From an uncultured Deferribacteres bacterium (GTDB lineage Bacteria; Zhuqueibacterota; Zhuqueibacteria; Zhuqueibacterales; Geothermadaptataceae): a stretch of 55,118 bases of DNA. Both the position numbers and the translations under genes were made by a program. Each line of letters starts with the position of its first letter. The stretch's first letter is position 1. The stretch covers positions 1 through 55,118 of the forward strand of contig CAXHAT010000023.1 in NCBI GenBank assembly GCA_964014485.1, read 5' to 3'. Positions 18,687 through 20,864 of this stretch are shown piece by piece. The notes beneath the pieces are model-generated. The model worked only from the letters and a program-made list of their open reading frames with translations. It did no database searches and was not told the DNA's origin.

Positions 18687-18763
18687 TTCAATATATATTA
18701 TTTCTCACACACTTTAAGAAGCATTCACTTCAATTCATCAAGTTCACCATGGAAGGAGGAACA

Positions 18764-19621
18764 ATGGAAAACGTGCAAGATTTTGGCGCTTACGTGAAGA
18801 ATCTAATCATTCAATATGCGCCAGACGTTGTGTTAGCGCTCGTGACTCTTATCGTCGGTTTCTGGATTGTCGGTCTCGTCGTTAAAGCGATAGACCGAGC
18901 TATGGAAAGAGGAAACCTCGACATGGGAATCCGAGGTTTTCTGCGCAGCATTGCATCCGTTTTGTTCAAAGTTCTTGTTCTGTTCAGCGTCGCCGGGATG
19001 TTGGGTATTCAAACGACGTCATTTATTGCAATTCTTGGCGCGGCAGGTTTGGCGGTTGGTCTTGCATTGCAAGGCAGCTTGGCAAATTTTGCCGGCGGCG
19101 TATTGATTTTGCTCTTTAAGCCCTACAAAGTCGGCGATTTCATCGACGCACAAGGCCATGCCGGAACGGTAAAAGAGATTCAGATTTTCAATACAGTTTT
19201 GAAGACGCCTGATAATAAAAATGTTATCATCCCGAACGGCGCGATCTCAAACGGCAGCATCACCAACGCTTCCGTCGAAGCCACTCGCCGGGTCGATATG
19301 GTCTTCGGCATCGGCTATGACGACGATATTCAGCAATTCAAGGATTTGTTGAATAGACTTATCGAAGGCGATGAGCGCATTTTGCGTGAACCGAAATGGC
19401 AGGTCGTCGTTTCGGAATTGGCCGACAGCTCCGTAAACTTTACGGTTCGCGTTTGGTGCAATCGCAGCGATTATTGGGGCATTTATTTCGACATGCACGA
19501 ACGCGTCAAGATCGAATGCGACAAGGCGAACATCTCGATTCCTTACCCGCAGCAAGACGTTCACATGTATAGTCACAGCCAGGAAGACCTTGGCGTGATT
19601 AGCGTTAAATCAGAAGCCTAA
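18764..19621 (+). CDS. mscS: Small-conductance mechanosensitive channel
   Basis: GAAGLAVGLALQGSLANFAGG, KPYKVGD, IPN, RRVDMVFGIGY, ISIPYPQ. Confidence 0.95.
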   Translation: MENVQDFGAYVKNLIIQYAPDVVLALVTLIVGFWIVGLVVKAIDRAMERGNLDMGIRGFLRSIASVLFKVLVLFSVAGMLGIQTTSFIAILGAAGLAVGLALQGSLANFAGGVLILLFKPYKVGDFIDAQGHAGTVKEIQIFNTVLKTPDNKNVIIPNGAISNGSITNASVEATRRVDMVFGIGYDDDIQQFKDLLNRLIEGDERILREPKWQVVVSELADSSVNFTVRVWCNRSDYWGIYFDMHERVKIECDKANISIPYPQQDVHMYSHSQEDLGVISVKSEA

Positions 19622-19705
19622 ATTTGAGACAAACAACAGTTTACACGACTTCGACGCGCAGGCGTTCTCGCGTGTCATAGGTTTTCGCATTCCACTCCTA
19701 ATTGA

Positions 19706-19759
19706 AAGGCCGATTATGAAAGCGCATCCATTCCGCGTTATCATAAATCGGCCTTCTTT
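19706..19759 (+). terminator. Probable terminator hairpin after mscS
   Basis: aaggccgattatga...tcataaatcggcctt followed by cttt. Confidence 0.55.
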
Positions 19760-19949
19760 GTTACATTGAATCGTTGCTGTACGGTGCGAAAGCGCCGAAC
19801 CGCAAACACGTTTTGAAATTTTCGGGGGAGCAATCGTCCTCCGCATCTCCCGGCGGACGTTTTTCTTTGGACAAGCATCAACCGCGACTTACTTTGCGTT
19901 TGGCCATCGAGGCCGCAAAGTCCTACCAGATTTTTTCACGGAGGTTTAG

Positions 19950-20336
19950 ATGAAATTTTTGATTAACCGAAGCGCTTTCTCTCGCTTTGCGCAAATTTTT
20001 GTTGCGCTGGCGTTTGTCGGCCTTTTCTCGTGCGCCAACGAAGGCGAGCAGAAATTGAAGGCCAAAATCACCTACTACGCCATCCCTGGCTGACCGCACT
20101 GTGCACAAGTGACGACCATCGTGAATGGTCTTGCGGAAGAGTATGAAGGGACGTTGGAATGCAAGGTGCTTGACGCCACCGCCGAAGAAAGCGTCGCCAA
20201 AATCAAGGAATACGGTTTTGGCAACCACGGCCTCGTCATTTTTGATGCTGAGGACAATGTGAAGTGGAAGAAAGACGGGCACATGATGCGCGAGCCGGAA
20301 ATCCGCGCTGCATTGACGGAAGTGCTGCAAGAATAA
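19950..20336 (+). CDS. Predicted selenoprotein: thioredoxin-fold lipoprotein with U-P-H-C motif (TGA 20091-20093 read as Sec48), 128 aa
   Basis: GGAGG RBS; ATG 19950 in frame with TGA 20091 and with the downstream ORF 20109-20336; lipobox LFSC; ITYYAIPG-U-PHC. Confidence 0.8.
20094..20136 (+). promoter_or_regulatory. Bacterial SECIS-like hairpin
   Basis: Lower stem ccgca/tgcgg directly after the UGA; upper stem gaccat/atggtc with loop cgtga, 26 nt from the UGA. Confidence 0.65.
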
Positions 20337-20864
20337 ATGCAAGACGCACAATTTATTCTGAAAACGGAGCGGCTTGTCCTGCGAAAAATGTCGTTCGACG
20401 ACGCTCCGTTTATTCTTGAACTCCTGAACGATCCCGCGTTTCTGCGCAACATCGGCGACAAGAGCGTGAGGACGTTAGAAGACGCGAAAAATTATATCCT
20501 GACCGGCCCGATGGCTAGTTACGAAAACTTTGGTTTCGGGCTATACTTGACAGAATTGCGAGAATCGGGCGTGCCGGTCGGCATATGCGGGCTGGTGAAA
20601 AGAGAAACGCTGGAGCACGCCGATGTTGGTTTTGCGTTCATGCCGCAATATTGCGGGAAAGGTTTTGCCACGGAATCGGCGGCAGCCGTTCTAAAACTCG
20701 GCAAGACGAAGTTTCGCCTCGAACGCATCGTCGCCATCGTCTCTCCAGACAACGAGGCTTCGATTAACGTGCTTCAAAAACTGGGGATGTGTTTCGAAGA
20801 GATGATCCAAATGTCGCCAAACGCCGAGCCTTGCGCACTCTATGGACCAAGCCCGGCGTCTTGA
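20337..20864 (+). CDS. GNAT (RimJ/RimL-type) N-acetyltransferase
   Basis: ETERL-like start, DVGFAFMPQYCGKGFATE, NEASINVLQKLGM. Confidence 0.9.
   Translation: MQDAQFILKTERLVLRKMSFDDAPFILELLNDPAFLRNIGDKSVRTLEDAKNYILTGPMASYENFGFGLYLTELRESGVPVGICGLVKRETLEHADVGFAFMPQYCGKGFATESAAAVLKLGKTKFRLERIVAIVSPDNEASINVLQKLGMCFEEMIQMSPNAEPCALYGPSPAS

Follow-up and report, generated by a model that had tools for sequence, protein, structure and literature searches.

The window analysed here is the whole 55,118-nucleotide (nt) stretch of contig CAXHAT010000023.1, from the assembly GCA_964014485.1 of an uncultured Deferribacteres bacterium, and the element under study is a candidate gene at 19950-20336 for an exported thioredoxin-fold selenoprotein, in which one in-frame TGA would be read as selenocysteine (Sec, U). 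The program-made list of open reading frames (ORFs) splits this gene into 19950-20093 (47 amino acids, aa) and 20109-20336 (75 aa, GTG start), and both halves exist as separate predicted proteins in public collections (P0038, 47 aa, and P0001, 75 aa). An earlier look at the letters (the sequence-only reading) had joined the two pieces across the TGA; it had mentioned the 75-aa C-terminal call, and the 47-aa upstream piece is in the same list too. The features of the gene are the following.

19940..19944, plus strand: Shine-Dalgarno-like GGAGG, 5 nt ahead of the ATG, read off the sequence
19950..20336, plus strand: predicted complete coding sequence of the selenoprotein, with 128 codons (UGA48 among them) and the TAA stop at 20334-20336; translated with TGA as U, the frame being kept before and after the TGA at 12 distinct homologous loci
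19950..20033, plus strand: predicted signal peptide (residues 1-27) and lipobox Cys28 (L-F-S-C), read off the sequence and matching a modelled helix at residues 7-25
20091..20093, plus strand: UGA as predicted selenocysteine U48, residue 1 of U-P-H-C51; TGA at this column in 12/12 DNA-verified homologues and Cys in 53/62 library matches
20100..20102, plus strand: Cys51 codon, putative resolving partner of U48; Cys in 73/78 aligned family members
20114..20130, plus strand: hairpin resembling a selenocysteine insertion sequence (SECIS), with stem 20114-20119, loop CGUGA 20120-24 and stem 20125-20130; covariation over 12 loci
20226..20231, plus strand: His93-Gly94, at the pre-cis-proline residue and the cis-proline itself, from profile alignment to solved thioredoxins and family counts
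20280..20282, plus strand: His111, second conserved His, 2 residues past strand 4, from family counts and modelled secondary structure

The Shine-Dalgarno-like GGAGG, the ATG at 19950 and the signal peptide with its lipobox LFSC28 are all present in the sequence. The N-terminus, MKFLINRSAFSRFAQIFVALAFVGLFSC, carries a positive charge followed by a hydrophobic stretch that ends in L-F-S-C28 (Cys28 codon at 20031-20033), and a short linker leads from there to K-I-T-Y-Y-A-I-P-G. The active-site motif YYAIPG-U-PHC is encoded as ITYYAIPG, the TGA at 20091-20093, and CCG CAC TGT, and this is the sole in-frame TGA of the 128-codon frame. As the sequence-only reading had described, the frame stays open to 20336 (TAA 20334-20336) and a GNAT gene starts from the next base (ATG 20337; Acetyltransf_3, 97.3 bits).

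Homologous DNA was collected by six-frame searches of 41 relatives, of metagenome loci and of 167 genomes of the window's phylum; the tallies for the 41 relatives, the 167 genomes and selA include G016 and G023, which are flagged unpublished, and no specific claim rests on either. A single in-frame TGA was found in both matches among the 41 relatives (2/2), in all of the metagenome loci (4/4) and in every strong match (E <= 4.5e-28) among the phylum genomes (9/9), while 22 weak places in 21 phylum genomes (<=32.7 bits, no TGA) were set aside as generic thioredoxin-like genes. Dropping the duplicate L020 (= L025) left 12 distinct loci; these come from 9 genomes plus 3 additional metagenome contigs. 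The TGA stood at the identical column in all 12, preceded by YY-x-x-PG and followed by x-x-C, giving the motifs UPHC, UPYC, UPFC, UPQC and UMIC, and the signal peptide and YY-x-x-PG upstream of the TGA were conserved in frame. In one of these loci, a high-G+C metagenome homologue (L021:768-1136), TGA is both the Sec codon, at residue 42, and the gene's terminating codon. A scan of genome contigs with the U-to-C protein gave 6 weak loci, all of them unrelated thioredoxin-like genes; a Cys-coded pattern of this kind could not match TGA forms.

The sequence-only reading had named TGC, TGT or TGG at 20091 in reads as the observation that would undo it. The TGA was retained in both contigs from public runs. 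The X1 contig, from a DNA run, covers 19674-20288 with 0 differences and may be the source sample. The X5 contig (195 nt) comes from another study's RNA library; it spans 20037-20231 and differs at 5 places, namely C51 tgt>tgc, synonymous changes at Y65, L69 and A78, and E66K (4 synonymous, 1 replacement), and leaves the TGA and the hairpin untouched. By this comparison the X5 contig shows the TGA in a second strain under purifying selection; it is no proof of transcription.

A four-member profile searched against 1.84 billion cluster representatives gave 152 matches at E <= 0.001, 28 of them at E <= 1e-10. From the 150 matches listed, the 147 proteins shorter than 300 aa were aligned. The Sec column was covered in 62, among which 53 are full-length CxxC forms, 4 are full-length forms with W at the column and 5 have neither Cys nor W; a fifth W form, P0155, came from a separate look-up. 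The WxxC forms are probably TGA called as Trp. A further 68 are N-truncated calls that start 1-14 columns past the Sec column, many of them beginning 'M-x-C' or at a GTG within the hairpin loop ('MNGL', 'MSGL'), and the remaining 17 are other fragments. All full-length Cys rows (24/24) of the 30-row alignment A3 are CxxC. The family comprises 130 or more cluster representatives, and roughly half of these are known solely as N-truncated calls; wherever a source gives a name for a homologue it is 'hypothetical protein', and none comes with a precomputed Pfam domain. A look-up in the ESM Atlas with the Cys homologue P0010 returned generic thioredoxin clusters alone. The five members with neither Cys nor W (P0024, P0051, P0057, P0060 and P0139) have no Cys pair, reading AxxS, DxxG, IxxS or TxxL; they may be redox-dead relatives. 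The His-Gly described below is retained in three of the five (P0024, P0051, P0057).

These data bear directly on the account in which the TGA is a true stop, leaving either a pseudogene or a 47-aa lipopeptide together with a 75-aa cytoplasmic protein from GTG 20109. Standard gene calling does yield these two halves, each of them deposited, and TGA is a normal stop in this genome. However, the TGA and both its flanks are kept in a single frame at 12 distinct loci, Cys occupies the column in 53 full-length relatives, and 4 of the 5 changes in the strain variant are synonymous, the other being a replacement. Moreover, strand 1 and the CxxC, both required by the thioredoxin fold, lie upstream of GTG 20109, and the 75-aa piece is without active site and export signal. 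A true stop is close to refuted, and we would give it only a very slight chance.

Downstream of the TGA, the sequence-only reading had proposed a SECIS composed of an inner hairpin, gaccat-cgtga-atggtc, and an outer ccgca/tgcgg pairing (20094-20098 with 20132-20136). The inner hairpin, which begins 20 nt past the UGA, was borne out by the alignment of the 12 loci (TGA at columns 10-12; stem at columns 33-38 with 44-49), whereas the outer stem was not conserved across them. All six stem pairs are standard in 12/12 sequences, the loop CGUGA is invariant, and compensatory double changes occur at 5/6 stem pairs, the stem reading GACCAU/AUGGUC in the window, UGCCAU/AUGGCA in G001, GGCGAU/AUCGUC in G084, AACCAU/AUGGUU in G048 and G049, and GCCCGC/GCGGGC in L021. 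When a 7-pair structure was tested, neither its covariation score nor its paired percentage was matched by any of 500 shuffles, slid controls gave pairing of 26-45% only, and RNAalifold predicted the same helix with no structure supplied. Stem changes partly alter the protein (T-I-V-N-G, A-I-V-N-R, P-A-V-S-G), so that pairing is kept at the expense of protein sequence. Bacterial SECIS elements have been described as a stem-loop that lies a short way past the UGA and has a G in its small apical loop (PMC1088965), and the hairpin, with its 6-bp stem and G-containing CGUGA loop, fits that description.

The sequence-only reading would have fallen had the genome carried no Sec machinery. In the 8.4 Mb assembled here (465 contigs, 97% completeness), selB (332 bits, cut-off 242), selA (567 bits, cut-off 268) and selD (377 bits, cut-off 125) are all present, and ARAGORN found one tRNA-SeC(tca) among 48 tRNAs. 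The selD (L009, G000 contig C68:143-1069, minus strand) is a selenoprotein gene as well, with one in-frame TGA in …LARTCG-U-AAKV… followed by a hairpin, AGCCC-GGUC-GGGCU, again with G-U in the loop. In the phylum, selA was found in 131/167 genomes (129 over the cut-off), so the window's phylum appears to use selenocysteine unusually widely; 7/9 carriers of the TGA form have selA.

The machinery also bears on the possibility that local suppression or a variant genetic code inserts Trp, Cys or some other standard residue at the UGA. The W at the column in P0004, P0008, P0034, P0140 and P0155 would favour such read-through, but it is most simply explained as TGA=Trp calling, P0004 and P0155 resembling the TGA forms L026 and L020, and in relatives the column is the redox Cys, not Trp. 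TGA is also an ordinary stop in this genome, ending 1169/3267 ORFs of at least 300 aa (36%), including the GNAT gene next door, and a complete Sec system is at hand together with a conserved G-U-loop hairpin at the usual bacterial SECIS place. We consider decoding as a standard residue highly improbable. On comparative evidence UGA48 was shown not to act as a stop, because it is conserved, is aligned with Cys in relatives and is trailed by a conserved hairpin, and we hold it nearly certain that this is a genuine Sec-decoding gene. None of the three checks that the sequence-only reading had set as possible refutations (Sec machinery in the genome, reads at 20091, Cys or Sec at the column in homologues) went against it.

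The export signal seen by the sequence-only reading agreed with the model of the protein, which has a helix at residues 7-25. In 10/10 DNA-verified copies from the window's phylum the N-terminus is hydrophobic and finishes with a Cys preceded by G, A or S, and the product is predicted to be a lipoprotein, lipidated at Cys28, tethered to the membrane and facing the periplasm. L021 and L022, both high-G+C metagenome homologues, have an RR-containing signal peptide without a lipobox Cys. An AlphaFold2 (AF2) model built from a 30-row alignment reached a mean predicted local distance difference test (pLDDT) of 89.2, with elements helix 7-25, b38-44, a49-64, b69-75, a79-87, b94-99, b104-109 and a115-127. 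As shown by this model, residues 38-128 are predicted to form the minimal thioredoxin/glutaredoxin topology, a four-stranded sheet with three helices in which U48-P-H-C51 opens helix 1, so placing the CxxC site at the N-terminus of that helix as in the thioredoxin fold. Thioredoxins were the best structural matches (VIA-align Z 11-14, root-mean-square deviation 1.4-2.5 A, 85-92 residues aligned over model residues 34-128), and Foldseek matched a thioredoxin at E ~7e-6. An exported thioredoxin fold, as claimed from the letters, is accordingly what we expect with high confidence.

Sequence models placed the protein near known families and inside none of them. The window protein fell short of the Pfam gathering thresholds of Thioredoxin_4 (PF13462; 18.8 vs 23.2), Glutaredoxin (PF00462; 17.5 vs 22.9) and Thioredoxin (PF00085; 16.8 vs 23.5), and of the NCBIfam cut-offs of SaoT (NF040730; 25.7 vs 65, the best match) and TsoX (12.3 vs 52). 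Among the 30 A3 members, the Thioredoxin model was found at E <= 0.01 in 9 (best E 1.2e-5), and matches to curated selenoprotein models were weak (SaoT in 7 members, best E 7.2e-6; TsoX, best E 0.013). NF047660, NF041383, NF045500 and NF041057 gave no match to the window protein at E <= 1 and are absent from the 25 families listed for A3 members. The sequence-only reading had called the active site DsbA-like. The PH dipeptide of the window copy agrees with that label, but the orthologues read UPYC, UPFC, UPQC or UMIC, DSBA (PF01323) gave no match at E <= 1, and the model has no helical domain, with no insertion between strands 2 and 3 beyond one helix.

The cis-proline position had been noted as apparently reading GFGNHGLVIFD, suggestive of a divergent family, and this proved correct. 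In the profile alignment to solved thioredoxins, Gly94 falls on the Pro of IPT/VPA (the cis-Pro) and His93 on the preceding residue; the family therefore departs from the thioredoxin fold at this site, with Gly94 in 141/143, His93 in 133/143, His111 in 123/136, both His in 118/134 and Cys51 in 73/78 of the family matches listed. In P0043 a Cys replaces H93. Across thioredoxin-fold groups the cis-proline is reported to be conserved more strongly than even CxxC, and it is considered to aid substrate binding and possibly to exclude metals from CxxC (PMC2757866, citing Su et al. 2007). The equivalent of His93 is Ile75 of E. coli thioredoxin, which lies spatially beside the CXXC and tunes redox properties and substrate interaction (PMC2665069). 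Helix 1 and strand 3 both begin, and strand 4 ends, at one edge of the thioredoxin-fold sheet, and therefore His93 and His111 should flank Sec48.

Searches in further phyla returned proteins that keep the cis-proline. The 401 genomes sampled from the phylum to which the Gammaproteobacteria metagenome-assembled genome (MAG) G167 belongs held no family member; their single match, an MJ0307-like CPHC thioredoxin, was rejected for its normal cis-Pro (SPG). Likewise, no family member was found among 301 genomes sampled from the phylum of the Thermoflexales MAG G169, where all 3 matches were lipoprotein thioredoxins that were rejected because cis-Pro is kept (GHPT, GQPQ). Two lipoprotein thioredoxins of the Chloroflexota sample, L056 (G619) and L057 (G595), both with CPFC, carry G-H-P-T, a His right before the retained cis-Pro, and are a possible intermediate between ordinary thioredoxins and the His-Gly family. 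In the window's phylum the family was found in 9/167 genomes, in all 9 as the Sec form. A FastTree tree of the C-terminal 67 columns (133 rows) required 19 Sec/Cys changes compared to 28-45 in 200 label shuffles, by which Sec and Cys forms seem clustered on the tree, yet repeatedly switched; the tree is short and poorly supported, has 12 unlabelled rows and takes 68/73 'Sec' labels from truncation, and it was not relied on.

Taken together, 19950-20336 is best explained as one gene for a 128-residue exported thioredoxin-fold selenoprotein, which we regard as very probable as a whole. Several points weigh against this explanation. Selenium incorporation and the protein itself are deduced from comparing sequences. 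The 68 truncated calls, which we infer to be Sec forms, have had their DNA read in a few cases, such as P0006 (G001) and P0015 (G084). Two carriers of the TGA form, G103 (94% complete) and G048 (98% complete), had no selA found, and the co-occurrence with selA says little because the base rate is already 131/167. With regard to the hairpin, the folding energy of the 66-nt stretch was -14.6 kcal/mol against -16.1 +/- 2.6 for shuffles (z = 0.58), 136/200 shuffles being as good or better; Rfam at E <= 10 over 19700-20500 gave chance-level nuoG and mir-8512 only and no family at the hairpin; and the RNA-level support for the putative SECIS consists of covariation only. Its conservation may be partly protein-level, because the stem lies within conserved codons (T/A-I-V-N-G), and in E. 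coli fdhF the loop G-U stands ~8 nt closer to the UGA. The proximity of His93 and His111 to the active site comes from topology, not from coordinates. Finally, no conserved gene neighbourhood was found among the loci scanned, and the neighbours give no functional clue.

If the gene is decoded in this manner, SelB with Sec-tRNA(Sec) would bind the hairpin at 20114-20130, whose CGUGA loop has the G-U typical of bacterial SECIS loops, and selenocysteine would be delivered at codon 48 while the ribosome is on the UGA. The product would then be exported, lipid-modified at Cys28 and tethered to the membrane on the periplasmic side, where the Sec48/Cys51 pair could cycle between selenenylsulfide and selenolate/thiol, exchanging with cell-envelope substrates, and His93 (at the reactivity-tuning position of the thioredoxin fold) and His111 may assist the redox cycle. 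We give about even chances to thiol/selenol-disulfide exchange on envelope substrates being the function.

The same residues could instead serve a selenoprotein that binds a metal or metalloid (copper, mercury, zinc or an Fe-S cluster) through Sec48, Cys51, His93 and His111, as a tethered periplasmic chaperone, buffer or sensor resembling Sco. The loss of the cis-proline thought to bar metals from CxxC (PMC2757866), with Gly94 in its place almost throughout the family, would suit such a site, as would two conserved His accompanying the redox pair, both placed by topology at the active-site sheet edge, and the Cys of P0043 at H93. In a distant CxxC branch, moreover, the domain is fused to the heavy-metal domain HMA (P0070, 57.5 bits) or to the Cys-rich DUF6370 (P0056, P0079, P0117), and P0053 and P0079 have His-rich stretches. 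The same branch also holds an HbpS-like fusion (P0116) and, listed with the fusion proteins, a tandem two-domain form (P0066). However, the metal-domain fusions occur in distant Cys members (E ~1e-7) and not in the Sec branch, no cox, nos, cop, mer or sco gene lies beside any of the 10 loci scanned, and no SCO1-SenC match was obtained at E <= 1. His near a redox pair would equally suit acid-base catalysis, the geometry again being taken from topology. Metal or metalloid binding by Sec, Cys and the two His is the chief competing function and one to be taken seriously, though less likely in our estimation than redox exchange. In its more specific form, the family would be a natural selenolate metal site, with Sec48, Cys51, His93 and His111 holding copper, mercury or another soft metal in an envelope metallochaperone or detoxifier; we find this somewhat more doubtful still, but if true, selenium would have been selected for metal affinity, not redox speed.

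Several known systems resemble the exported selenoprotein proposed here. A 2026 review (PMC13188914) inventories many thioredoxin-like UxxC families, including PF00085 and PF00462 rows. With the Sec thioredoxins and glutaredoxins described there the window protein shares the thioredoxin fold, a UxxC opening helix 1, Cys homologues and a coding-region SECIS just past the UGA. It differs in being a predicted exported lipoprotein and not cytosolic, in staying below the PF00085 and PF00462 gathering scores, and in having His-Gly for the cis-proline and a second His; the extra strand at the N-terminus is absent. DsbA and the 'DsbA-like protein form 1' (PF01323, UxxC; PMC1088965, PMC13188914) are likewise exported thiol-disulfide proteins and share C/U-P-H-C with the window copy; in contrast, the window protein is without the helical insertion domain, its folded part is ~91 residues, its structural neighbours are plain thioredoxins and PH is not conserved in its orthologues. 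SaoT (NF040730; 10.1101/2022.07.06.499078) is also small and thioredoxin-like, occurs in UxxC and CxxC forms, and has database entries usually truncated at the Sec codon; its authors suspect metal contact (10.1101/2022.07.06.499078). However, SaoT is ~85 residues long, has no signal peptide, is MJ0307-like and sits in a nine-gene sao operon, whereas the window protein scores 25.7 bits against the cut-off of 65 and no such neighbours were seen at the window-family loci scanned. Sco (SCO1/SenC) is a membrane-tethered, periplasm-facing thioredoxin fold with a Cys pair and a conserved His at the functional site (PMC2757866), but has CxxxC and extra insertions, while the window family has CxxC and two His, and its metal binding is hypothetical.

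No row for an exported thioredoxin-fold family with His-Gly at the cis-proline was seen in the inventory table of PMC13188914, though family members could be concealed under its generic entries ('thioredoxin', 'thiol:disulfide interchange protein', 'thiol-disulfide isomerase-like'). We describe the family as uncurated in the libraries searched and make no claim that it is unpublished. For annotation, this gene and about half of the family's cluster representatives are recorded as a headless 'hypothetical protein' of 70-80 residues; reading the TGA as Sec would restore a complete exported redox protein and supply the bacterial selenoproteome with a further, uncurated family. The cis-proline is the most conserved rule of the thioredoxin fold, and by replacing it with His-Gly plus a second histidine the family offers a testable case of how the scaffold is retuned, be it for redox or metal. 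From the ecological side, its carrier belongs to a phylum rich in Sec users. Thioredoxin-like UxxC proteins being the commonest kind of selenoprotein, a specialist's surprise would be moderate.

Two further genes flank the selenoprotein gene and serve as context only.

20337..20864, plus strand: GNAT acetyltransferase gene, abutting downstream (Acetyltransf_3, 97.3 bits)
18749..19621, plus strand: MscS-type mechanosensitive channel gene, upstream (MS_channel_2nd 75.9 bits, MS_channel_3rd 57.7 bits)

A GNAT gene was not among the neighbours scanned at 10/11 other distinct loci (L031, near-identical to L030, was left out of the neighbour scan), and the MscS-type gene was not conserved beside homologues at the loci scanned. 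A Peptidase_M49 gene (family f5) lies upstream in four close relatives only, and at the other loci the neighbours vary (a methyltransferase and a TPR protein, rhodanese and cupin, ThyX and cyclophilin, LexA, alpha/beta-hydrolases). As far as neighbours tell, the selenoprotein gene appears to be functionally alone. In the window, the ATG of the GNAT gene starts at the base right after the selenoprotein TAA (20334-20339), an abutment that suggests translational coupling, though no GNAT gene lies beside the other loci scanned. On the minus strand, two antisense ORFs at 19923-20351 (142 aa) and 20075-20461 (128 aa) overlap the selenoprotein gene and are probably spurious. The stretch at ~19706-19755, downstream of the MscS gene, holds a long imperfect inverted repeat (AAGGCCGATTATGA … TCATAAATCGGCCTT), and a second terminator-like hairpin with a T run lies at 19840-19866, ~85 nt upstream of the selenoprotein ATG; both are likely terminators, giving the selenoprotein-GNAT pair its own transcription unit.

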